Positions 3,160-49,845 of a stretch of 64,000 nucleotides of DNA are shown piece after piece; the first letter of the stretch is position 1; each line of letters opens with the position of its first letter. A program made the translations under genes and the position numbers. This stretch comes from Patescibacteria group bacterium (lineage in GTDB: Bacteria > Patescibacteriota > Patescibacteriia > UBA10025 > JAHIVO01): the NCBI GenBank assembly GCA_041660605.1, contig JBAZWB010000001.1, positions 201,295 to 265,294 on the forward strand. The letters are read 5' to 3'. The notes below the pieces were generated by a model that saw nothing but the letters and a program-made list of their open reading frames with translations, had not been told where the DNA came from and made no database searches.

Positions 3160-3201
3160 TTATTGCTGGAAGCTTATTGGTCAGCAGTAGATTGATTGGA
3201 A

Positions 3202-3242
3202 AAATAAGTAATTTAACAATTCAATACGCATCAGCCCGCCCG
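3202..3242. repeat. 41-bp direct repeat copy A (aaataagtaatttaacaattcaatacgcatcagcccgcccg)
   Basis: Identical over 40 of 41 nt to copy B at 5499..5539. A 15-nt core (cgcatcagcccgcc) recurs inverted near 6044..6059. Confidence 0.7.
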
Positions 3243-3322
3243 CAACGACTTCGTCGTGCGAAGTCGGGCGAATTGCCAGGTGACCTGTTTCTCTCATAAT
3301 CTAATCCATAACTAAGATATTT

Positions 3323-4426
3323 ATGGAATCACAATTTGGAACAAATACTACGACTTTTTACATTATCCTACCAATTCTAGTCATTGCCGCGGTGGCCATT
3401 GTGTGGTTCGTTTTAAAACTGAAAATGACACCATGGCAAAGAGTAGCGATCACGGTAGGGAGCCTCTTTGCTTTTCTTGGATTCGCAGTGGTTGTACTGG
3501 GTGTGTATTATCAGGTTAATGAGCCGTTTGCCAGCTCGTTTAAATTTTACGCCTTTACGGCATTTGCTCCGGATCAGCGCGATCCCTTTACCGAGCACAG
3601 CGAAACTCAGTCCGTGCTGATGATGCGCACGGTCGGATTTAGTGATGGGGAAGTACGGACGCAATATCATCCGAATCCATACGCTCCTACGATTACCTAT
3701 TTGTTTGTGCCGGGTAAATTTATCACAGCAAATCTTCAAGATAACGTATTAACCTATTTTATCAATAAAGAAGAAGCGGTAGAGAACACTTCACTCTGGT
3801 GGGCGTTGACCAAAGACATGCAGACGATGACATCCGATGCGGCCAATCAGGATCTAGCAACCACTCAGTATCTCGATCTCGGGCATGATTTTTCAAGCCA
3901 AGTGCCGACCGGATGGAAACTGGAAGGCTCGGAGTCAGATGCCATAAACACTGTAAAATTCGGATCACCGGCTGAACGATATAACTTCATTCCCAACACA
4001 GAAAGTATGGATTCAAATGATATGTATACCGGTCCCTTTATTAGCACCTCCTCATTTACCATTGACAGCAGATTGTCGGCTCGTGATGTAGCCAATCTGA
4101 TTCAGGATAGTTCGTCTGCAGACAAGATAGACAATGGCACTGACGAGTGTATATTCTCTGCCGATGTTAGCGTTACCGGTATCGGATATTATGCGTATCT
4201 ATCTGACAATACAGATCTTACGCAATGCGCAGACCAGGGAACTGAAATCGGCAAAAGCATGACACTGGTCCTCAAGAACGAAGGGGATGATCGAGCGGTA
4301 ACGGTGGCGCTTACAGCTAAAAATGATTCAGAGTTTGACGCAGCTTATTATAGTCTTCGTGAGTTTGTAAATTTGATGAATTTGGATAATACTTTATTTC
4401 AATTAAGTCAATTTGGTGCGTCCTAA
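3323..4426 (+). CDS. Hypothetical membrane-anchored/secreted protein (367 aa, two N-terminal TM helices)
   Basis: Hydrophobic N-terminal stretches 'FYIILPILVIAAVAIVWFVL' and 'GSLFAFLGFAVVVLGVYY'. The gene is AT-rich and lies inside the repeat-flanked cassette. Confidence 0.45.
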   Translation: MESQFGTNTTTFYIILPILVIAAVAIVWFVLKLKMTPWQRVAITVGSLFAFLGFAVVVLGVYYQVNEPFASSFKFYAFTAFAPDQRDPFTEHSETQSVLMMRTVGFSDGEVRTQYHPNPYAPTITYLFVPGKFITANLQDNVLTYFINKEEAVENTSLWWALTKDMQTMTSDAANQDLATTQYLDLGHDFSSQVPTGWKLEGSESDAINTVKFGSPAERYNFIPNTESMDSNDMYTGPFISTSSFTIDSRLSARDVANLIQDSSSADKIDNGTDECIFSADVSVTGIGYYAYLSDNTDLTQCADQGTEIGKSMTLVLKNEGDDRAVTVALTAKNDSEFDAAYYSLREFVNLMNLDNTLFQLSQFGAS

Positions 4427-4587: not shown

Positions 4588-5253
4588 TTGACTAATAATA
4601 CTCTTATGAAAATAAAATACCTTTTAATCCTAGTAGCCGTGGTAATTGTTTCTGCCGCATTATATGTTTTTGTAATTCTGCCCAATAACGAGGATGGCGC
4701 TACCGATGATAGTCAAGCAAATGGCAATAGTAATTCATCTTTATCAATGACAACTTATCAAAATGATGAGTATCGTTTTACTTTAAGCTATCCATCTGGC
4801 TGGCGGCACAACTCAGTTGATACCAGTGATGCGGCCAGCGGTCCGTATTTTCCGTTTGTATCAATGGCCTTGGAAGAATTTGGATCTGATGATGTTAAAC
4901 AGTCAAAAATTCCTTTCACGGAAAATGATCAACGAATTCATTTTGGTATTGAAGTATATGAGATACCAGAAGAATATTCATCCGAAGGCCTAAAAAGTGA
5001 GTTGGGGTATACTAATACTAATACAAGAGCTAATATATATAAGGGCATGTTTGGTAATTATAGAGCTTTGGTAATGGTGATAGACGATACCAACCATGAA
5101 ATAGAATCAGCTCGCATGTTTAGCCAAAGCTATTTGATACAAAAAAATAGCCTGTGGTATAAAGTTAGTGTTACTGCTCGTCGAGAATCAGTGATAAATG
5201 AAAACAGTACTCTAATTAAGCAAATAGAAAATTCATTTAGGATACTAGAATGA
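4588..5253 (+). CDS. Hypothetical secreted protein with an N-terminal signal anchor (221 aa)
   Basis: N-terminal 'LLILVAVVIVSAALYVFVIL' followed by an AT-rich coding region. Confidence 0.45.
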   Translation: MTNNTLMKIKYLLILVAVVIVSAALYVFVILPNNEDGATDDSQANGNSNSSLSMTTYQNDEYRFTLSYPSGWRHNSVDTSDAASGPYFPFVSMALEEFGSDDVKQSKIPFTENDQRIHFGIEVYEIPEEYSSEGLKSELGYTNTNTRANIYKGMFGNYRALVMVIDDTNHEIESARMFSQSYLIQKNSLWYKVSVTARRESVINENSTLIKQIENSFRILE

Positions 5254-5296
5254 ATAGTATATAGGGTGCGGTATTGACGCGCGTCGTGTTGAATTA

Positions 5297-5485
5297 ATGG
5301 GCGACAATGATTTATCTATCGGTACTTTTTTCATTGATCCACAGGGTAATTATTATAATTTCAACATCGAAATTTTTCCACCCACTTTAGCTGGTGAAAC
5401 AATTGGCACTCATTCGCAGGCGTATCTTGATTCTGTCCGTGATACCTATGATAGTATTATTGAGAGTTTCAAGTTTATAAATTGA
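5297..5485 (+). CDS. Small hypothetical protein (62 aa)
   Basis: ORF only. Confidence 0.25.
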   Translation: MGDNDLSIGTFFIDPQGNYYNFNIEIFPPTLAGETIGTHSQAYLDSVRDTYDSIIESFKFIN

Positions 5486-5498
5486 TACTCTTTAAATA

Positions 5499-5539
5499 AA
5501 ATAAGCAATTTAACAATTCAATACGCATCAGCCCGCCCG
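5499..5539. repeat. 41-bp direct repeat copy B
   Basis: Matches 3202..3242. It lies about 95 nt upstream of tRNA-Asn. Confidence 0.7.
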
Positions 5540-5634
5540 ATACGCTTCGCTAAAGCAACGCGGGGCAAGCAATGGCCCCGCTAGTCAGCGGGGTAAATGC
5601 CGCAACCAAAATATTTTAAATTAAAATACTCTCC

Positions 5635-5706
5635 TCCGCGATAGCTCAATGGTAGAGCAACCGGCTGTTAACCGGTAGGCTGTCGGTTCGAATCCGACTC
5701 GCGGAG
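5635..5706 (+). tRNA. tRNA-Asn (anticodon GTT)
   Basis: Hand-folded cloverleaf: acceptor TCCGCGA/TCGCGGA, D arm GCTC-AATGGTA-GAGC, anticodon arm ACCGG-CTGTTAA-CCGGT, T arm GTCGG-TTCGAAT-CCGAC and discriminator G. No CCA is encoded. The 5' end resembles E. coli tRNA-Asn (UCCUCUG...). Confidence 0.8.
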
Positions 5707-5802
5707 GAGAGTATTTTTTGTTTTAAATGGGCTGCCTGCCCCGCCGAATGGCGGGGTTAACCCCGTATCACAGTTCACTTCGTTCACTGTTCACGGGGCA
5801 AG

Positions 5803-5820
5803 CCGGTAGGCTGTCGGTTC
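5803..5820 (+). repeat. 18-nt duplicate of the tRNA-Asn 3' half (ccggtaggctgtcggttc; original at 5672..5689)
   Basis: Exact 18-nt direct repeat read from the sequence, about 115 nt downstream of the tRNA copy. Confidence 0.7.
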
Positions 5821-6211
5821 TCCCGCCATAAAATTATTTAATTAATAATGAAGGCGGGATCCGCCTCCCTTCGGGTCTGAGCCCCTCAGGGTCGAAGACT
5901 GGCGGAGAATCTTGAGATCAAAAATATAATCAAATGACGAAATCCCGCCGCAAGGCGGGGCGACTCGCCCCGATAGAAATCGGAGATTTCGTACGGGGCT
6001 CGCGGAGTTAGGTGCCTGCCCGCTTTACATTGCAAAAGCAAGGCAGGCGGGCTGATGCGGGGCATGGAGACAATGGAACCTAGCTAGAAGTAATAAACCA
6101 CTGCCTGTCGTGTGGTAATTTTGTAATTTCTAATAGGATTGATTTTTAGCATAAATAATGGGATAATGTCAGCACTGGTTAAGAATCCTATTTTTATTTT
6201 TTATTTATAAT

Positions 6212-6964
6212 ATGTCCCAATACTACAACCCCCAGCGAAAACGCAATCTCTACGACCCAAAAAGTCCGGCTGTGTTCCGGCTTAGCCGTTCGCAAATTGA
6301 TTTATTTTTGAATTGTCAGCGCTGTTTCTATCTTGACCGGCGGCTTGGGGTTGGCCGGCCGCCTGGCTATCCCTTTACGCTGAATTCAGCGGTTGATGAA
6401 CTTTTGAAGCGTGAGTTTGATATTCATCGTGCAAATGGCACGAAACACCCGTTGCAGAAAAAATACGGCATAGACGCCGTTCCGCTGGCGCATGAAAAAA
6501 TGGACGAATGGCGCGACGCCTTGCGGCATGGCATTGCTTTTCATCACGACCGCACAAATTTTTTAATTACCGGCGGCATTGATGATGTCTGGGTCAGGCC
6601 AAACGGCGAATTAATCATCGTTGATTACAAGGCCACATCAAAAAAAGAAGAAGTGAATCTTGATGCTGACTGGCAGATCGGGTACAAGCGGCAGATGGAA
6701 GTCTATCAATGGCTCTTCCGGCAAAACAGGTTTAAGGTTTCCAAAACAGGATACTTCGTCTACTGCAATGGCAACAGCGATGCCAAAGCTTTTGACGGGA
6801 AACTGGAATTTGACGTAAAAGTAATCCCATATGAGGGTGATGATTCATGGGTAGAGCAGGCAATTATTGACGCTCACGCTTGCCTGAATGGCAATAAAAT
6901 TCCCAGGGCTGGCCAGGATTGCGATTATTGCAGTTATATCGCGGCAATAAACAGTAAAAGTTGA
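6212..6964 (+). CDS. PD-(D/E)XK nuclease of the Cas4/RecB-like family with a 4-Cys cluster
   Basis: N-terminal 'SRSQIDLFLNCQRCFYL' (Cas4/AddB-type S.S...C..C), motif 'IIVDYKATS' (hhDYK), 'KRQMEVYQWLF' (Q..Y) and a C-terminal 'CDYCSY'. Confidence 0.6.
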   Translation: MSQYYNPQRKRNLYDPKSPAVFRLSRSQIDLFLNCQRCFYLDRRLGVGRPPGYPFTLNSAVDELLKREFDIHRANGTKHPLQKKYGIDAVPLAHEKMDEWRDALRHGIAFHHDRTNFLITGGIDDVWVRPNGELIIVDYKATSKKEEVNLDADWQIGYKRQMEVYQWLFRQNRFKVSKTGYFVYCNGNSDAKAFDGKLEFDVKVIPYEGDDSWVEQAIIDAHACLNGNKIPRAGQDCDYCSYIAAINSKS

Positions 6965-8349
6965 TGAGACAGGCAGAAGCTTTGGAAATACTAAAAATGG
7001 GGCATAATGTGTTTTTAACCGGCCCGGCAGGCAGCGGCAAGACTTTTTTGTTGAATAAATATATTGGTTATTTAAAGAAAAATAAAGTTGAAATGGCGAT
7101 TACCGCTTCGACAGGGCTGGCGGCTACCCATTTAAACGGCCGGACCATCCATTCCTGGTGCGGCATGGGAATCAGCCAGAGCCTGGATGACGCGCAAATT
7201 AATCATTTGAAAAAAAAGAAACATTTAAATTCAAGCATCAGGCAGGCCAAGGTTTTGATAATAGACGAGATCTCCATGCTTAACGCCAAGCGCCTGGATC
7301 TGGTTAATGCTATTTGCCAGGCTTTCCGGCAGGATGCCAGGCCGTTTGGCGGGATTCAAGTAATTTTTTGCGGAGATTTTTTTCAGCTCCCACCGGTAAC
7401 CAGGAACGAAGATGAAGATGGACGTTTTGTCATTGAGTCGGAGATATGGGGCAATATGGATATAAAGATTTGCTATCTTGAGGAGCAGCACCGGCAAGCA
7501 GACAGGCGGTTTCTGAAAGTATTGAATGATATCAGGTCTAACCAAGTCACGCCCGGTACTGTAAATATTTTGAAAACAAGATTTAATAAGCCGATAGAAA
7601 ATAAAATAAGGCCGACCAAATTATATACGCACAACCATAGCGTTGACGCCGAGAATTTTTCTGAATTAGACAAACTAGAGGGGGCAGAGGTGCCTTATGA
7701 AATGCGCTCTGAGGGCGTACAGCACCTGGTCAAAAGCCTCAAGGACAGCTACTGCCTGGCTCCCGAGACCCTGAAGCTGAAAATTAACGCGGTGGTCATG
7801 TTTGTTAAGAATAATTTTACCAAGGGGTATATCAACGGCACTTTGGGCAGGGTAACGGGATTTGACGGAGAAAGCGGCTTTCCCGTCGTAGAAACGATTT
7901 CCGGCGATAAAATCATCGCCTCTCCCGAAAAGTGGGGCATAGAAGACAATGGCAGCGTTATCGCCTCAGTTATCCAGGTGCCGCTCAGGCTGGCCTGGGC
8001 TATCACGGTCCATAAAAGCCAGGGGATGAGCCTGGATTGCGCGGAAATGGATTTAAGCAAAACATTTGAATACGGCATGGGTTACGTTGCCTTATCCAGA
8101 GTAAAAGCATTGTCAGGCATAAAATTGTCAGGCCTAAACGATTTGGCATTAAAAGTAAATCAAAAAATCGTTGATCTGGATAAAGATTTTTTCAGGATGT
8201 CGCAGAAGCTATTGAAAGGATTAAAGACATTAAGCAAGAAAGAAAAGAAGGATAGGCAGAAGAAATTTATACAAAATAACAGGATTACTGACGACGTGCT
8301 GTATAATTTCAGAACGGAAAGCGCAACAGTCGATGATATTCCATTTTAA
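6961..8349 (+). CDS. Pif1-family SF1B DNA helicase
   Basis: Walker A 'GPAGSGKTF', 'ITASTGLAATHL', 'TIHSWCG', Walker B 'LIIDEISML', the Pif1 signature 'DFFQLPPV' and 'VHKSQGMSLD'. The start overlaps the nuclease stop by 4 nt. Confidence 0.8.
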   Translation: MMRQAEALEILKMGHNVFLTGPAGSGKTFLLNKYIGYLKKNKVEMAITASTGLAATHLNGRTIHSWCGMGISQSLDDAQINHLKKKKHLNSSIRQAKVLIIDEISMLNAKRLDLVNAICQAFRQDARPFGGIQVIFCGDFFQLPPVTRNEDEDGRFVIESEIWGNMDIKICYLEEQHRQADRRFLKVLNDIRSNQVTPGTVNILKTRFNKPIENKIRPTKLYTHNHSVDAENFSELDKLEGAEVPYEMRSEGVQHLVKSLKDSYCLAPETLKLKINAVVMFVKNNFTKGYINGTLGRVTGFDGESGFPVVETISGDKIIASPEKWGIEDNGSVIASVIQVPLRLAWAITVHKSQGMSLDCAEMDLSKTFEYGMGYVALSRVKALSGIKLSGLNDLALKVNQKIVDLDKDFFRMSQKLLKGLKTLSKKEKKDRQKKFIQNNRITDDVLYNFRTESATVDDIPF

Positions 8350-34004: not shown

Positions 34005-34107
34005 GGGTTAGTCCACCCAGCAGAGCAACCTGCCCGCCATAGCTCCGCTAGGAGCGGCAGGCGGGGCTCTGCACCTACACATATTAAATAGTGCTATAAT
34101 TAAATAT

Positions 34108-44418: not shown

Positions 44419-44586
44419 TGAAATTATTTATAATCACCCATCAGACAGCTTTACAAAATATTCAAGCGGCAAGCGAGGGCTTGCCGCAACCCGATTAGAA
44501 AACCAATACAAAAATTATTATGAGAATGTTTGATTTTTGGCAGATTATGAGCTAAAATTCATTTATAATAGGCTAAAATAAATAAC

Positions 44587-47500
44587 ATGAAAAAAACACT
44601 AATAATTGGCGTGGCCGCGGCAGTTGTGATTGCCGGCGGTATTTTTGCGGTGGTCTTCATCAATCAACCGGAGAAAACTCCGGTAAAAAACAACCGGACT
44701 GTGCCGGTTATTTATACCCAGGCAGACAATCAATTCACGCTGAAAGCGGACAAAGCCGATGCCCTGGGCGTGGAATCGGACAGCACTTTTACTCTCTCCA
44801 CCAAAGAGCCGGTGAGCGCAGATTTGATCAAGGGCAACCTGGCAGTTGAGCCGAAAATCGCCTATAAGGTGCAGTCGTCTGACAGCAATACTTTCAGCAT
44901 CACTCCTGAATCCGCGCTGGAAAAAAACACTGTTTATACTTTTTCCGTCGTGGCGCAAGCAGAAGGCGCGGCTACCAAGCGGGAATACCAGTGGGCTTAT
45001 CAGATTAAGGATAATTTTAAAATTACCGGCACCCTGCCCAGGGACAAAACCGCCAACATCCCTCAGAATACCGGGATTGAAATAATTTTTTCCCACGAAA
45101 ATTACACTGACTTTGAGAATTTCATTACTATCACCCCGCAAGTCAGCGGCAGATTTGAACAGCACCGCAAGACTTTAGCCTTCGTCCCGGATAGCCTGGC
45201 ACCCGGCACGCTTTATACTGTTTTGGTGAAGAAAGGCCTGCCTTTGTCCGGTAGCAGCGATACTCTGGCGGAGGACTACAGTTTTCAGTTTGAAACCGAC
45301 ACTCAGCAGGCTCCCCAGGGAGGCCTGTCGTTCAGCAAAGATTTTTTTGAATATCCCTCCAATGAAGCGCCGATCCTGACAATGCAGCAATATAGCGATA
45401 ATCCGGGTGAGGTGCAGGTGGAAGCTTTTAAATATCCAACCTTTGAAGCTTTTGCTGAAGCCGTGAAAAGCCTGGACGCAGTGCCGTATTGGGCTTATTA
45501 TGCCAGGCGCAACAGTTCTTATTCCACTGACGGTTTGATTTCAGCAGTTACCTTCCAGGCTGAGGTAAAGCAGTCGGATTACCAGCGATACATCGAATTT
45601 CCTGAACAGCTGAGCACTGGCCAATATTTAATCCAGATTACCAGGGATAATAATACCGCTCAGGCTTTTCTGCAGGTGGGCAATCTGACGGCCAGCTATC
45701 AGGGCGGCAAAGAAAATTCATTCATCTGGGCGCACAGCCTGGACACCCAGAAACCAGCGTCGGGTACGACTGTTTCCTTTTCGCACGATAGACAGTTCAC
45801 TGCCAAGACAGACAAGGAAGGCCTGGCGGAATTTGCCAGTCCCGCGTTAACTACTGACGAGAGCGAAGGCCTGACCAGCACTTATTATTTCACACTTGAT
45901 AATAACGGCGAAAAATTATTACTGCCGGTGGTAAATCACTATGGCACGTGGATGAGTTCAACTGCGTCAGAAGACTATTGGTCTTATTTATATACGAACC
46001 GGACGTTGTATTCGCCGACGGACAGCATTAAATTCTGGGGCGTTATTAAATCCCGCAGCGATAAACAGGAAGCCCAGGAGCTGCAGGTAAGGTTAGTCAG
46101 CTACGGGTATTATTATAATGAAGATTCAAATCCGATCATTGACCAGAAAACTCTGCCAGTTTCTTCATTTGGCACGTTTACCGGATCATTCGACTATGCC
46201 AACCTGAACCCTGGCGGTTATTCGATACAGGTTTTGGCCGGTGGAGAGGAAATCCTGAGCACCTGGGTGGATGTCGCCACCTACACCAAGCCGCCGTACA
46301 AGATTGAAGTAACGACGGAGAAGAAGGCGATTTTTGAAGGAGAGGATGCGGTCTTCAATATTAAATCAGCGTTTTTTGACGGCACTCCGGTGGCTAATCT
46401 GGACCTGGAATATACCGGCGCGCTCGGCAGCGGACAGGTAAAAACCGACGTTAACGGCCAGGCGCAGGTAACCTTGCAGTCAAGCTACACTAACGCCGGT
46501 TATTATCCGAATTATGCATATTTTTCCATTCATCCGGTCAAATCGGAGATCTCGGAAATAAGCACGGACGCGAACATTTACACTTTTGGGCCGCACTACG
46601 ACCTGCAATCCACCATAGACAATGACGGGCTGGTGTCCGGCAGCGTGCATCAGGTTGACCTGGCTTCCATCAATAAGGAAGGCGGAGACTTCAAATGGGA
46701 ATATCAGGGCGATCCGGTAGCCAATTTGAATCTGGGAATAAAAATTTACCGCGAGTATTACACCAAAACAGAAACCGGAACTTTTTATGATTTTATCAAT
46801 AAGAAAACCAATAAGACCTATAACTACGATTTCCATTCTGATTTTACCAAGGAGTCCACGGCTGTCAGTGATAAGGATGGCAAGTTCACTTACGATTTTA
46901 AAGCGGAGACTAATGATAACTATAAAATTGAAATTACCGCTACGGACGCTGAGGGGCGCCAGGCGAAGAGTTACGCGTATTATTACCAGGGACCGCGATT
47001 CTACGGCTATAATTCGGGGTATGATAATTATTATCTTATAACTTCGCAGGTAGCGGAGACGGAGAACCAGCCCGTGTATCAGCCGGGGCAGGATATTACC
47101 CTGAATTTCAACAAAAACGAAGAGCTTCTCGCCGGTGCAGACCAGAAAAATTTCGTTTATTTCAAGGCGCAGAAAAATTTCTTCGACATAGAAGTTTCCA
47201 AAAATCCGACAATAGAATTCAAATATAAGGATTCCTACGCGCCAAATATTTACGCCTATGGAATTTATTTTGACGGCCGCAGCTATCACCTGACCGATTC
47301 CCTGAACATGAAATACGACACCAGCCTGAAGAAATTAAATATTGACATTCAGCAGGATAAAAAGTTCTACCGTCCGGGCGAAAAGGTGACCATGAATTTA
47401 AATGTGACTGATAAAGATAAAAGACCAGTGCGGGCGGAAGTCAACATTTCCGCCATTGATGAAGCTTTGGCCGCCATTCAATGGGAAAATCCCATCAACA

Positions 47501-49845
47501 TATTGAGCACGCTTTACCAGAATCTGCCGACGCCGCTGGCTTTCGTATACCAAAGCTATGATAAAGCCCTGACTGCCAATGCGGAGGGCGGCGGCTGTTT
47601 CACCGGTGAGACGGAAATTCTCATGTCAGACGGCAGTAAAAAGAACATTGCAGATATTAAAATCGGCGATGAAGTGCTGACCAGGCGTTCGCCGCAGAGC
47701 GATGAGATGGCCGCGGCCAAAGTCACAAATAAGCTGGTGCACATGGTTGATTCTTATCTGACGATCAACGGGTTTCTCAATGTCACCCCGGAGCATATAG
47801 TTTATTTGAATGGTGATTGGCAGACAATCGGAACGGCGAAAATCGGCGATGAGCTCATGGATTATTCGGGCAATAAAATTGTCATTGAATCCATTGTCGC
47901 TCATCATCTGCCCACTGCCGTTTATAATTTGAAAATCCAGAATTACCATACTTTCATCGCCGACGGCATCTATGTGCACAATGAAAAGGGCGGCGGCCGG
48001 GAAAATTTCCAGGATATCGCTTATTTCGGCTCTGCGGAAACCGGCAGCGACGGCCAGGCTACTGTCCAATTCACCTTGCCGGATAACGTTACTTCCTGGC
48101 AGACCGCCGTTCACGCTTTAACCAAGGATCTGCAGGCAGACGCAACCCAGACAGCGGTCATCTCCACTTTGCCTTTCTTCGTTGATGTTTCCGCTTCTGC
48201 CAATTATCTGGTAGGCGATAAGCCGACCGTTAAATTAAGGAGCTTCGGCACAGGATTAAAAACCGGAGAAAATGTCATATATGACATAACTTACCCAGGC
48301 TTCAGCGAGGAGACCCAGACATTGCAGGGCGGAGCCGCGGATCCGGTGGAATTTACGCTTCCGGATTTTGCCGAAGGCGACCATTCGATCAAGGTCAAAG
48401 CCCACCAGGGCAATTCGGAAGATACGGTTACCAAAAAAATTATGTACCGCACTTCCAATATCACCACGGGGGTGACACGGCATTATCTGCTAGCGCCGCA
48501 GGTGCAGATAGAAGGCAGCAGCGCCGGCCGCACTAATCTGACGTTTGTCAGCGAGGACAGGGGGCAATATTATAATTACCTTAAATATTTGTCCTTCGCC
48601 GGCAGCGACAGGGTTGACCAGAAAGTCGCTAATTTTGCTTCCGCAAGTTTATTGAACCAATATTTCGGGGAAAATAACACGGCCGAAGCGATCAACTTCA
48701 CTGATTATCAGGTCGGGGAAGGGGGATTGTCATTACTGCCTTATTCTTCCGCAGATTTATTGTTAACTGCCAAAGCCATGGAAATGGCCGGCGACCAGTT
48801 TGACACCCAATTGGCGAAAAGCTATTTCCGGGGAATTCTGGATAATAAATCCAGCAATATAGATGAAGTCGCTTACGCGCTTTTTGGCCTGGCTAATCTG
48901 CATGAACCGGTACTGACTGACATTAATTTATTAATCGACAATAATGAAGTACCACCGGAGCTGATGCTCTACCTGGCCAGGGCCGTCTCCAACCTGGGCG
49001 CCACCGAATACGCCGCCACTCTGCTACAGCAGGTAATTAACGACCATGGCGTGCAGTCCGATCCTTATCTAAAAATAGATCTGGGCACCACGCAGGATGA
49101 CAATACTGAATACACCTATCAGGCGGCAATTTTGGCAGCGGCGGTTTCATCCGACCAGGCAGGCAAGCTTTTTGACTATGCTCAGGAAAATCCCGCCCGC
49201 GATCAGCTTAATGTTTTAGACGAGCTGGCTTACATTAAAACCAGCCTGCCTCTTTTGACAGACAATAAGGTCAGTTTTTCCTATACTTTGGGAGCTGAAA
49301 CTAAACCCATAGAATTAACCAACAATCAGGCACTGACGGTTTCCGTCACTCCGGAGCAGCTGCAGCAAATAACATTCAGCGCGATTGACGGCCAGGTTGG
49401 CGTGATCGCCTCTTATCAGCAGGCGGCTGATTGGCGTCAGCTGCCAACGGATAATTTAGTATCAGTCAAAAGGGAGTATCTGGTTAACGGCCAGGCCGTC
49501 ACGAAGTTCAATGAAAGCGATATTGTGCAGATAAACCTGACTCCCACTATCGCCGAAAAAGCGCTGGATAATGAATATCAGCTGACTGACTATCTGCCGG
49601 CAGGTCTGAAACTGCTGACCAATATTACTTCGCGCGGATTGGATTATGACCAGCAGCTGGGCTTCCCTTACGAGGTCAACGGTCAGGCGGTTAAATTCTG
49701 GACCGGCAAACCGGCCAAGGCATTCCACTATTACGCGATAGTCGTAGGCAAAGGCCAATATAAGGCTGAACCGGCGGAGATCCAGGGCTTTGTCGCCAAG
49801 GACAGCAGGAATTTCAGCCAGGCACTGGATATCACTATCAATTAA
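44587..49845 (+). CDS. Giant secreted multidomain protein with alpha-2-macroglobulin/MG-domain-like architecture and an embedded Hint (intein-like) domain
   Basis: Signal anchor; repeated beta-rich domains; 'FTLPDNVTSWQ' resembling the A2M 'PDSITTW' motif; helical TED-like C-terminal region with no CxEQ. The Hint domain has blocks 'CFTGETEIL', 'TPEHIVYL', 'VYNLKIQNYHTFIADG' and 'IYVHN'. Confidence 0.55.
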   Translation: MKKTLIIGVAAAVVIAGGIFAVVFINQPEKTPVKNNRTVPVIYTQADNQFTLKADKADALGVESDSTFTLSTKEPVSADLIKGNLAVEPKIAYKVQSSDSNTFSITPESALEKNTVYTFSVVAQAEGAATKREYQWAYQIKDNFKITGTLPRDKTANIPQNTGIEIIFSHENYTDFENFITITPQVSGRFEQHRKTLAFVPDSLAPGTLYTVLVKKGLPLSGSSDTLAEDYSFQFETDTQQAPQGGLSFSKDFFEYPSNEAPILTMQQYSDNPGEVQVEAFKYPTFEAFAEAVKSLDAVPYWAYYARRNSSYSTDGLISAVTFQAEVKQSDYQRYIEFPEQLSTGQYLIQITRDNNTAQAFLQVGNLTASYQGGKENSFIWAHSLDTQKPASGTTVSFSHDRQFTAKTDKEGLAEFASPALTTDESEGLTSTYYFTLDNNGEKLLLPVVNHYGTWMSSTASEDYWSYLYTNRTLYSPTDSIKFWGVIKSRSDKQEAQELQVRLVSYGYYYNEDSNPIIDQKTLPVSSFGTFTGSFDYANLNPGGYSIQVLAGGEEILSTWVDVATYTKPPYKIEVTTEKKAIFEGEDAVFNIKSAFFDGTPVANLDLEYTGALGSGQVKTDVNGQAQVTLQSSYTNAGYYPNYAYFSIHPVKSEISEISTDANIYTFGPHYDLQSTIDNDGLVSGSVHQVDLASINKEGGDFKWEYQGDPVANLNLGIKIYREYYTKTETGTFYDFINKKTNKTYNYDFHSDFTKESTAVSDKDGKFTYDFKAETNDNYKIEITATDAEGRQAKSYAYYYQGPRFYGYNSGYDNYYLITSQVAETENQPVYQPGQDITLNFNKNEELLAGADQKNFVYFKAQKNFFDIEVSKNPTIEFKYKDSYAPNIYAYGIYFDGRSYHLTDSLNMKYDTSLKKLNIDIQQDKKFYRPGEKVTMNLNVTDKDKRPVRAEVNISAIDEALAAIQWENPINILSTLYQNLPTPLAFVYQSYDKALTANAEGGGCFTGETEILMSDGSKKNIADIKIGDEVLTRRSPQSDEMAAAKVTNKLVHMVDSYLTINGFLNVTPEHIVYLNGDWQTIGTAKIGDELMDYSGNKIVIESIVAHHLPTAVYNLKIQNYHTFIADGIYVHNEKGGGRENFQDIAYFGSAETGSDGQATVQFTLPDNVTSWQTAVHALTKDLQADATQTAVISTLPFFVDVSASANYLVGDKPTVKLRSFGTGLKTGENVIYDITYPGFSEETQTLQGGAADPVEFTLPDFAEGDHSIKVKAHQGNSEDTVTKKIMYRTSNITTGVTRHYLLAPQVQIEGSSAGRTNLTFVSEDRGQYYNYLKYLSFAGSDRVDQKVANFASASLLNQYFGENNTAEAINFTDYQVGEGGLSLLPYSSADLLLTAKAMEMAGDQFDTQLAKSYFRGILDNKSSNIDEVAYALFGLANLHEPVLTDINLLIDNNEVPPELMLYLARAVSNLGATEYAATLLQQVINDHGVQSDPYLKIDLGTTQDDNTEYTYQAAILAAAVSSDQAGKLFDYAQENPARDQLNVLDELAYIKTSLPLLTDNKVSFSYTLGAETKPIELTNNQALTVSVTPEQLQQITFSAIDGQVGVIASYQQAADWRQLPTDNLVSVKREYLVNGQAVTKFNESDIVQINLTPTIAEKALDNEYQLTDYLPAGLKLLTNITSRGLDYDQQLGFPYEVNGQAVKFWTGKPAKAFHYYAIVVGKGQYKAEPAEIQGFVAKDSRNFSQALDITIN
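47596..47982 (+). other. Hint/BIL domain (Cys1 to terminal Asn; 129 aa) inside the 44587..49845 protein
   Basis: Intein blocks A, B, F and G are recognisable. It is flanked by GGG on both sides ('AEGGG|C...VHN|EKGGG'); the +1 residue is Glu. Confidence 0.65.

Follow-up and report, generated by a model that had tools for sequence, protein, structure and literature searches.

A leader-trailer helix kept by compensatory change at a tRNA-Asn gene of Patescibacteria, and an adjoining hairpin block as putative remains of further tRNA-Asn copies

Introduction

Precursor RNAs in which the two ends are held together by a duplex are known from the rRNA operons, the leader-trailer stems of which are cut by RNase III, and on a smaller scale from precursor tRNAs (pre-tRNAs) in which the leader pairs with the 3' end. 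Here, a tRNA-Asn(GUU) gene with a long leader-trailer helix, and the block of GC-rich hairpins adjoining it, are analysed in a stretch of 64,000 nt from a Patescibacteria group bacterium (GenBank assembly GCA_041660605.1, contig JBAZWB010000001.1, positions 201,295 to 265,294), hereafter called the window. The window is part of the chromosome of an ultra-small bacterium of the Patescibacteria, or candidate phyla radiation (CPR), and contains the dnaG-rpoD neighbourhood. Coordinates are those of the window unless another locus is named, and the features described in it are on the + strand.

A considerable part of bacterial diversity belongs to the CPR; their RNA-processing machinery is reduced and divergent, and they are not cultivable alone. 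An encoded 3' CCA is a trait of many, not all, bacterial tRNA genes, and RNase Z acts poorly on a continuous duplex in which the -1 nucleotide is paired with the discriminator. In approximately two thirds of the circularised CPR genomes of one study, the RNase P RNA lacks the UGG motif which binds CCA (PMC8172020), and pairing of the leader with the 3' end inhibits bacterial RNase P (PMC9433436). An earlier reading of the region, hereafter called the original prediction, had described a tRNA-Asn within an extended helix, a partial tRNA copy and an array of hairpins, and had offered three options, a decayed integration site, a structured non-coding RNA (ncRNA) or an unusual pre-tRNA processing signal; it also proposed Rfam searches, RNA folding and a comparison with related genomes.

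Results

The tRNA-Asn gene and its leader-trailer helix

The tRNA-Asn(GUU) gene at 5635..5706 is intact and functional and consists of 72 nt including the discriminator G5706. ARAGORN calls a tRNA-Asn with the anticodon GTT at 5634-5707, and the Rfam family RF00005 matches 5635-5706 with 76.1 bits (gathering score 29), which places the gene among the bacterial elongator tRNAs. The Rfam search proposed earlier found no other family in the region, and the whole 64-kb window contains neither another tRNA nor another Rfam family. It differs at one or two of 72 nt from the rpoD-linked tRNA-Asn genes of the related loci L157, L168, L170, L171 and L175. The trinucleotide GAG directly follows the discriminator, so that the 3' CCA is not encoded in the genome, as had been claimed, and a CCA-adding enzyme is needed for this tRNA.

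A repeat finder identified an inverted repeat of 19 nt, 5623-5641/5699-5717, which is 100 % complementary and bears out the continuous helix of about 19 bp in the original prediction at all 19 positions. It consists of the seven acceptor pairs and 12 pairs between the leader and the trailer, the first of which, C5634:G5706, joins C(-1) to the discriminator (C-1:G73). The 5' leader strand, AAAATACTCTCC (5623..5634), is the perfect complement of the 3' trailer strand, GGAGAGTATTTT (5706..5717), which begins at the discriminator and was delimited by the inverted repeat, by covariation and by the fold. By our own arithmetic, the chance of 12 perfect pairs in a fixed register is about 4^-12 = 6e-8. 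The minimum free energy fold of 5605-5735 is a cloverleaf on top of the 19-bp stem (z = -7.2), and none of 200 shuffled sequences was equally stable. A U-rich tract, ATTTTTTGTTTT (5713..5724), overlaps and follows the 3' arm and gives it, judging from the sequence, a terminator-like context; it is mirrored by an A-tract in the leader, both in the window and in L170. The trailer GAGAGTGTTTTTTG is also present after a second tRNA copy in L171.

Conservation of the helix

Related loci were obtained in two ways. A metagenome scan with an 18-nt segment of the tRNA which recurs in the hairpin block returned mostly unrelated matches (coding sequence, and tRNA-Asn genes of other bacteria which encode the CCA and have ordinary terminators), plus the key locus L157, in which dnaG-rpoD is directly followed by a tRNA-Asn that has one base different from that of the window. 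Homologues of RpoD led to nine more loci from six further genomes of the clade (L167, L168/169, L170, L171/172, L173/174, L175/176, L177/178 and L179), with 81-87 % identity to the RpoD of the window.

The six intronless rpoD-linked tRNA-Asn genes (window, L157, L168, L170, L171 and L175) were aligned without gaps. The tRNA varies at three positions only, none of them in a stem, and all four tRNA stems are invariant. The flanks are unalignable as sequence, yet they are complementary in each of the six genomes; the leader and trailer are CCCTATAGCGC and GCGCTATAGGG in L157, and AACCCCAAAGC and GCTTTGGGGTT in L175, compared with the strands given above for the window. In this alignment, 11 of the 12 extension pairs have changes on both sides, i.e. 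compensatory ones, 93 % of the cells in the extension are paired compared with 31-41 % when the 3' partner is slid by one to three columns, and the covariation score of the extension was reached by none of 500 shuffles. The leader-trailer helix is a selected RNA structure which is kept by compensatory change. The helices tolerate G:U pairs on the tRNA-sense strand, suggesting selection at the level of RNA.

Helices are also found at other tRNA genes of the clade. The intron-bearing tRNA-Asn genes have 17 bp, two of them G:U (L179), and 11 bp (L167, first gene). tRNA-Ser(GGA) genes, the CCA of which is not encoded, have a perfect helix of 14 bp in L167 (7089-7175), 13 bp in L171 (3523-3609) and approximately 13 bp in L175 (1700-1786). 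The tRNA-Gln of the more distant L040, on the minus strand of the retrieved locus (1551-1620 of its reverse complement), likewise has no encoded CCA and has a leader-trailer helix of 16 pairs, three of them G:U. Across the clade the helices range from about 10 to 17 pairs, the longest containing a few G:U pairs or one or two mismatches. A second type of tRNA-Asn in L171 has a weaker helix with seven contiguous pairs. This second, different tRNA-Asn(GUU), with the acceptor TCTGGGG, is found at L170 15870-15941 and L171 18832-18904, 4.6-7.6 kb downstream of the rpoD-linked gene, with the CCA encoded in L170 and not encoded in L171; the window has no such gene.

Flank pairing of only 0-2 bp was found at 22 bacterial and phage tRNA-Asn genes on unrelated contigs and at CPR tRNAs with encoded CCA. 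There is an exception in the tRNA-Asn of L177 (7245-7356), which has an encoded CCA and yet a 17-bp leader-trailer helix; that helix starts at C75, and a small loop of 3 nt (leader -1 to -3 opposite G73-C74) lies between it and the acceptor stem. There are also exceptions the other way, the tRNA-Ser of L170 and the cluster of L082 being without encoded CCA and without helix. Literature searches found no description of leader-trailer helices at CPR tRNAs, which apparently have not been described so far.

Proposed role of the helix

The helix is probably a signal for precursor processing or for termination. By analogy with the leader-trailer stems of the rRNA operons, it would be a double-stranded processing stem, perhaps also a terminator, which holds both ends of the precursor together as a duplex. 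A double-strand-specific cut of the extension duplex would be the first step, and RNase P, a trimming 3' nuclease and the CCA-adding enzyme would afterwards complete the ends. Since leader/3'-end pairing inhibits the bacterial RNase P (PMC9433436), a duplex of 18-19 bp with a -1:discriminator pair is expected to be a poor substrate of this enzyme. At the rpoD-linked genes, the helix and its U-run may also end the dnaG-rpoD-tRNA transcript. Among the three options of the original prediction, the unusual pre-tRNA processing signal is the best supported for the helix, with the covariation in relatives in its favour.

Alternatively, the structure could serve only as an intrinsic (rho-independent) terminator for the dnaG-rpoD-tRNA transcript, with the tRNA sitting in the 'loop' of the hairpin and without any role in processing. 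The 3' arm runs into or precedes a T-run (a U-run after or overlapping the helix in the RNA) in the window, L157, L168, L170, L171, L175 and L177, the tRNA lies 20-90 nt after rpoD in five relatives with no obvious promoter between, and the A-tract of the leader stands opposite the U-tract in the window and L170. This account appears rather unlikely, as no U-run adjoins the helices of the first tRNA-Asn of L167, of L179 or of the tRNA-Ser genes of L167, L171 and L175, and L179 has a separate canonical terminator 10 nt 3' of its helix, from which it follows that termination is not the general role. T-runs are, moreover, commonplace in AT-rich spacers, and the site was not called by a simple terminator scan, the loop limit of which (3-8 nt) is too small for a cloverleaf.

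Structure and content of the hairpin block

No other intergenic region of the window is as long or nearly as structured as 5254-6211 (958 nt, z ~ -14), which has 24 CCCGC/GCGGG-type motifs compared with 0-3 in any other. The block at 5718-6062 alone gave z = -6.35, with none of 100 dinucleotide-shuffled sequences folding as well; the folding proposed with the original prediction was significant for both this block and the tRNA with its long stem. In the fold of 5500-6120 (z = -8.4), a terminal helix closes the structure, and GNRA (GCAA) and UUCG loops are present on the + strand. The upstream part at 5520-5622 is by itself not significantly structured (z = -1.2). The GC-rich hairpins named earlier (ccccgcc-gaat-ggcgggg, ctgag-ccc-ctcag within cttcg...cgaag, and cccgcc-gcaa-ggcggg) are all present. 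Judged from comparison of the sequences, most of the GC-rich hairpins appear to lie within or between the broken remains of extra tRNA-Asn copies, with no separate RNA gene. The block would be a tandem or nested array of tRNA-Asn units, one of them intact and the others truncated and full of hairpin inserts, with the inserts at sites which match the D-loop, the 3' anticodon stem and the T-loop in the better-preserved copies of relatives.

The whole block is closed by an outer helix of 14 bp, the strands of which, CGCATCAGCCCGCC (5524..5537) and GGCGGGCTGATGCG (6046..6059), are a perfect inverted repeat. This helix is, from its homology with flanks in relatives, best read as the relic leader (plus acceptor) and trailer of a second tRNA-Asn gene. 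The leader ACGCATCAGC of the window is homologous to CACATCAGC of the second gene of L167 and to CACATAAGC of L179, and the trailer GCTGATGCG corresponds to GCTTATGTG of L179, with two compensatory differences in the helix. L179 has a complete second tRNA-Asn gene with such a leader; in L167, the contig ends after the 5' part of this gene. Within the outer helix, 5533..5575 contains a degenerate 5' fragment of tRNA-Asn, consisting of CCCGATACGCT (approximately positions 2-12), an insert of 23 nt and the D-loop CAATGG, and the hairpin CCCCGC-tagtca-GCGGGG (5576..5593) comes right after this D-loop remnant.

Downstream of the intact gene, AAATGG, a D-loop remnant, and GCTGCCTG (5725..5738) were tentatively recognised by eye as the collapsed 3' end of an insert ('insert 1') which is found in the D-loop of L157 (after AATGG) and L171 (after TAGC) and ends there with GCTGCCC(A/T)GG. 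The perfect hairpin CCCCGCC-gaat-GGCGGGG (5739..5756) is followed by a GGGTTAACCCCGTAT... hairpin (CCCCG...CGGGG, 5754..5798), the start of which is homologous to L171 11501-11515 (GGGTCAACCCCGTAT), which sits after the trailer of the second copy in L171.

The 18-nt tRNA copy of the original prediction is exact (18 of 18 nt). It lies at 5803..5820, equals 5672-5689 and represents the tRNA positions 38-55, i.e. the 3' anticodon stem, the variable loop, the 5' T-stem and the TTC of the T-loop; its blastn E value against the whole window is 6e-4. It is followed by the first hairpin of the T-loop insert, TCCCGCC and GGCGGGA around an AT-rich loop (5820..5859), homologous to L157 4020-4058, where the hairpin is TCCGCC - AT-rich - GGCGGA (68 % identity between window 5809-5866 and L157 4008-4066, E = 0.001). 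The next hairpin, TCCGCC...GGCGGA(G) at 5860..5907, with the nested stems CUUCGG and CUGAG-ccc-CUCAG, was identified as an inverted repeat and in the fold. Its 3' end (GGGTCGAAGACTGGCGGAG) resembles a T-loop with the 3' acceptor strand, and it may tentatively be seen as a collapsed tRNA copy (p ~0.07 against shuffles).

A remnant reaching from the T-loop to the 3' end of the tRNA (5938..6007) consists of CGAAATCC, CGACTCGC (5961-5968) and CTCGCGGAG (5999-6007) and is split by the hairpins CCCGCC-gcaa-GGCGGG (5944-5959) and GCCCCG...CGGGGC (5967-5999). The block ends with a hairpin, here called A' (GCCTGCC...GGCAGGC, 6014..6048), a paralogue of the element at 5531-5566 and of 3234-3270. Compared in register, the repeat is 71 % identical, its C>T and G>A changes preserve the stem, and a related hairpin is found in L083. 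Altogether, the tRNA fragments of the window cover only positions 33-39, 38-55, 61-68 and 64-72. The idea that every hairpin is a collapsed tRNA copy was tried and kept as a tentative one, the local tRNA alignments not being individually significant (p 0.07 to 0.9).

At the left edge of the block is a direct repeat of 42 nt (5498..5539), 41 of 42 nt identical to its other copy at 3201-3242. Each copy is followed by a GCCCGCCCG... hairpin, and the two bracket a segment of 2.3 kb with the open reading frames (ORFs) 3323-4426, 4588-5253 and 5297-5485, which is absent where tRNA-Asn directly follows rpoD. From its position, the repeat pair looks like an insertion or duplication boundary. A search for dispersed repeats resembling repetitive extragenic palindromes or miniature inverted-repeat transposable elements showed that, apart from the 42-mer at 3201-3242, no sequence of the block recurs in the 64 kb.

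Partial tRNA-Asn copies in relatives

The comparison with relatives clarified part of what had been proposed, in that the architecture with partial tRNA copies is shared, whereas a consensus structure is not, and L170 has nothing of the kind. The second copy of L157 is without positions 1-4 and consists of four exact pieces of 14, 20, 12 and 17 nt (CGATAGCTCAATGG, AGAGCAACCGGCTGTTAACC, GGCTGTCGGTTC and GAGTCCGACTCGCGGAG) which are split by three GC-rich inserts, one each in the D-loop, the 3' anticodon stem and the T-loop (there after GGTTC), and are followed by the same trailer as that of the first copy. The 18-mer of the window breaks at the same T-loop point as the GGCTGTCGGTTC piece of L157, after the C of GGTTC, and the next hairpin is homologous. 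Second copies with a homologous D-loop insert are found in L171 and L175. In L168, an exact 3' copy of 53 nt lies downstream of the intact gene, and upstream of it a 5' fragment comprises the tRNA positions 1-12, an insert of 30 nt and CAATGGTA, a fragment shared by L173/174. The window also has an upstream 5' fragment, because its 33 nt at 5543-5575 are 91 % identical to L168 11242-11274, inside this upstream element. The damage to the copies differs from one genome to another: L157 is without the 5' acceptor strand, L168 has a truncated 3' strand, other sequence stands in place of the T-arm in L171, the copy of L175 has lost its 3' half, and there is no copy in L170.

In L167 and L179, the tRNA-Asn(GUU) genes have a group I intron of approximately 240 nt in the anticodon loop (CTGT|...|TAA); RF00028 matches L167 11614-11841 with 46.4 bits (E = 2e-10), just below the gathering score of 50. 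These intron-bearing genes, at L167 11591-11887 and from 12137 and at L179 8596-8880, were missed by ARAGORN. In the window, no match to RF00028 was found at E <= 10 within 5200-6400. Directly after rpoD, L167 (11254-11571) and L179 (7324-7647) have an HNH-like ORF of 105-107 amino acids (PF01844, 21.2 bits, borderline), 70 % identical between the two and found only in the two genomes with intron-bearing tRNA-Asn. The protein is a candidate free-standing homing endonuclease.

Integration, functional RNA and splicing as alternatives

tRNA-Asn genes are classic integration sites, e.g. of the Yersinia high-pathogenicity island (HPI). The partial tRNA copies could be attL/attR-type scars of phages or islands which used tRNA-Asn as attB, and the hairpins the remnants of such elements. 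The breaks in the T-loop are of the kind that integrase crossovers leave, the window copy ending in ...GGTTC. L083, in which no tRNA is present, has a fragment from GAATCC to the tRNA 3' end with 17 of 18 nt identical, and fragments from the T-loop to the 3' end also occur in the spacers of L167 and L179. The locus varies among close relatives, and the 42-nt direct repeat (3201-3242/5498-5539) flanks the 2.3-kb lineage-specific segment beside the block.

Nevertheless, integration scars are improbable as the main explanation and would be a minor contributor. The 18-mer stops in the T-loop, short of the tRNA 3' end, which recurs only as separate pieces of 8-9 nt, 140-180 nt past the 18-mer. The presumed elements would have only 100-170 nt, with a spacing of 131 nt between copies, and Pfam scans of the long ORFs of the window returned no gene of an integrase, a recombinase, a phage or another element, neither at 1-31 kb nor in the remainder. 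Pieces of the 5' half are found on the upstream side of the tRNA, and breaks in the D-loop and the anticodon stem are common to several species; these shared breaks and upstream 5' fragments are fitted better by duplicated genes with insertions than by att scars. In the original prediction, the 18-mer looked like a duplication made by an element integrating at the 3' half of the tRNA. The 18-mer is no chance match and does derive from another copy of tRNA-Asn, with analogous partial copies in relatives, but as one piece of a copy broken by inserts at three loop or stem sites and not as an att duplication. The decayed integration site proposed there holds to the extent that the copy is a relic, and fails in that the copy ends in the T-loop, no integrase lies within 25 kb and fragments are found upstream too.

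An origin from phages was also considered and rejected, as blastn against 50,697 phage records matched the tRNA body alone. A scan of viral contigs with the 5' half of the tRNA returned unrelated tRNA-Asn genes without flank pairing, and a 16-mer of the block gave 37 single-copy matches in such contigs, as sequence matches only. Two unrelated metagenome contigs, L136 (1127-1188) and L144 (807-868), contain the 18-mer twice, inverted and 44 nt apart, within a larger perfect palindrome, which is probably a coincidence.

The segment 5524-6059 could also be one functional RNA of approximately 535 nt on a tRNA scaffold, closed by the 14-bp helix, such as an ornate RNA like GOLLD or ROOL, which adjoin tRNAs, or a tRNA mimic, decoy or regulator. 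The fold of 5500-6120 described above, with its terminal helix and its GNRA and UUCG loops, would agree with this, as would the identity of the tRNA-derived pieces to the resident tRNA in four genomes and the conservation of the 33-nt insert in three species. Against it, an Rfam search over the block returned the tRNA alone at the gathering threshold and nothing relevant even at E <= 10 (GOLLD, ROOL, HEARO and OLE included), the weak hits to Plastid-ycf2 and mir-3660 being the tRNA or the long hairpin itself. The D-loop insert shared by four relatives has no consensus structure (RNAalifold -1.2 kcal/mol) and no compensatory pairs. The structural excess is z -5.6 to -6.4 in the window and -4.9 in its closest relative L083, compared with only -1 to -2.4 in L157, L168, L171 and L175, so the extreme hairpin density is specific to the lineage of the window and L083. 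The versions of relatives are damaged in different ways, and L170 is without any. The structured ncRNA of the original prediction is not supported, with no Rfam family, no covariation in four relatives and a lineage-specific density of hairpins, and a single functional RNA is very unlikely.

A last alternative takes the interrupted copy as a split or multi-intron tRNA-Asn in the archaeal style, from which the inserts are spliced out to give a second functional tRNA. The same three insert sites (D-loop, 3' anticodon stem and T-loop after C56) across species, the exact 'exons' of L157 and the true group I intron in the tRNA-Asn of relatives would fit it, and introns are known in CPR rRNA and tRNA genes (PMC8172020). 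The pieces, however, never rejoin to a complete tRNA: L157 is without positions 1-4 and approximately 40-43, the window without most of the 5' half, the 3' acceptor strand of L168 is truncated, and the inserts of the window have no group I signal. A splicing endonuclease is not known from bacteria. This alternative is hardly credible.

Weighing of the preferred explanation

A helix selected as a processing or termination stem, together with a hairpin field which is the wreckage of further tRNA-Asn copies, is the joint explanation that we favour, with some reservation. Several points weigh against it. For the helix, both the processing enzyme (RNase III or another) and termination are inferences, the U-run is missing at the helices named above, and approximately 10 related loci were sampled. 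For the block, the assignments of 5725-5738, 5860-5907 and 6014-6048 are not individually significant, and so many perfect GC-only hairpins (z = -6.4) are not expected from simple decay. Nor would simple decay be expected to leave the fragments of second copies identical to the intact copy in their own genome. Lineage-specific bases track between the copies (the variable-loop C/T in four genomes and the T-loop G in L157), and gene conversion or selection must be invoked because the fragments follow the intact copy. The 33-nt non-tRNA stretch at 5543-5575 is 88-91 % conserved in L168 and L173, whereas neighbouring leaders are unalignable, which hints at some constraint. The perfect GC-only stems share a CCGCC/GGCGG core and might be what is left, after collapse, of the acceptor or leader-trailer helices of deleted units.

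A bolder proposal goes beyond this joint explanation and is offered as a tentative possibility. In a clade of Patescibacteria, tRNAs without encoded CCA would have their precursor ends locked in a duplex of approximately 10-17 pairs, continuous with the acceptor stem (C-1:G73), and maturation would start with a double-strand-specific cut and not with RNase P or RNase Z, a distinct bacterial pathway matching the divergent RNase P RNAs of the CPR. The tRNA-derived hairpin array may in addition be more than debris and, by virtue of being identical to the resident tRNA, be retained as a decoy or as a partner in recombination.

Neighbourhood of the locus

DnaG (87-1292) and RpoD (1307-2518) are followed by three lineage-specific ORFs, 3323-4426, 4588-5253 and 5297-5485, and the distance from rpoD to tRNA-Asn is taken up by approximately 3 kb of extra genes in the window compared with 20-90 nt in L157, L168, L170, L171, L175 and L177. 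E. coli rpoD-ileX was considered as a parallel and rejected, since ileX lies 700 nt downstream with mug between. On the 3' side of the block are genes for a PD-(D/E)XK nuclease, a Pif1-type helicase and ABC proteins, and the rest of the window contains ordinary chromosomal genes according to Pfam scans of the long ORFs. Two proteins of the window are found unchanged in a metagenome-assembled genome of a Patescibacteria group bacterium, and the window is identical to an ENA contig along the 6.75 kb that were compared. A cyanobacterial host, considered on account of a PsbP-like domain and the GC-rich hairpins, was rejected, since homologues and the identical proteins indicate Patescibacteria.

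The nuclease gene (6212-6964; PF12705, Cas4/AddB-like PD-(D/E)XK) overlaps the Pif1-type helicase gene (6961-8349). Of 555 confirmed relatives, the best 80, from metagenome-assembled genomes of many CPR classes, are 69-87 % identical to it as proteins, a conservation which is unusually strong for a CPR protein. The gene order around the nuclease is not kept. Synteny through this gene was tried as a route to the block and rejected: the 80 related loci are not syntenic, have no upstream tRNA-Asn and contain nothing resembling the block.

Three Logan assemblies break within the tRNA-Asn, at the start of L002 (corresponding to window 5662) and at the ends of L173 and L174, consistent with k-mer branching from repeated tRNA segments or with co-occurring relatives which share the tRNA. 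A rearrangement at the break corresponding to window 5662 was rejected; a co-occurring relative shares the tRNA up to the A/G difference in the T-loop, in agreement with the arithmetic for k = 31.

Elsewhere in the window, 44587-49845 encodes an alpha-2-macroglobulin-like protein of 1752 amino acids with a Hint/PT-HINT domain inserted at approximately residues 1003-1132, which may, from its domain match, be an intein-like or pretoxin module. The intergenic regions 34005-34107, 44419-44586 and 51376-51852 fold better than shuffled sequences, with a rough z of about -4 (eight shuffles each), and have no Rfam match.

Discussion

A covariation-supported duplex which seals the ends of a pre-tRNA is a testable clue to the maturation of CPR tRNAs without encoded CCA and, if this role is true, the helix would explain why CPR RNase P RNAs can do without CCA recognition. 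It is also an annotation signature for tRNA genes of this type. The block indicates that a single tRNA locus can gather nested partial copies and hairpin inserts, and in relatives group I introns and an HNH-type gene, which is relevant to tRNA gene finding and to breaks in metagenome assembly; the breaks at the tRNA-Asn locus call for caution in its binning and assembly. The block further warns against labelling each strongly folding GC-rich spacer as ncRNA.

Several known systems share traits with the block. tRNA att sites, those of P4-family integrases and of the Yersinia HPI at an asn tRNA, likewise have partial copies downstream, breaks in the T-loop and a variable locus. The present locus differs in having neither integrase nor element, a copy which stops short of the 3' end, 5' fragments on the upstream side and several inserts inside the copy. 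Group I introns in the anticodon loops of bacterial tRNAs, such as the cyanobacterial tRNA-Leu(UAA), have their like in the tRNA-Asn(GUU) of L167 and L179, whereas the window is without group I signal and its inserts are short hairpins elsewhere in the tRNA. GOLLD and ROOL are likewise large structured non-coding stretches beside a tRNA, closed by a terminal helix; the block of the window differs in having no Rfam match, no structure conserved in relatives and a content of tRNA gene fragments.

For the helix, intrinsic terminators offer the G+C-containing stem followed by a U-run, and the upstream A-tract of the window is like that of bidirectional terminators, but the 'loop' of the window is a whole cloverleaf and the U-run is absent at several like helices. 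Pairing of a pre-tRNA leader with the 3' end also extends the acceptor stem and affects end processing, both with the leader-RCCA pairing in bacteria (PMC9433436) and at the tRNA-like element of MALAT1 (PMC8457004). The known pairings are of a few bp and usually regarded as a nuisance or modulator, compared with approximately 10-17 covariation-conserved pairs in the CPR helices, which occur almost only at genes without encoded CCA. The leader-trailer stems of 16S and 23S rRNA in the rRNA operons, substrates of RNase III, share with the CPR helix a (near-)perfect long-range duplex of the flanks which is kept by compensatory change; it places the two precursor ends side by side, which in the CPR would likewise serve their release by an endonuclease. 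The CPR duplex differs from them in flanking a single tRNA of 72 nt, in its length of approximately 11-17 bp, and in being coaxial with the acceptor stem, with the discriminator paired to the -1 nucleotide; by analogy with the rRNA stems, it too may be cleaved by RNase III.

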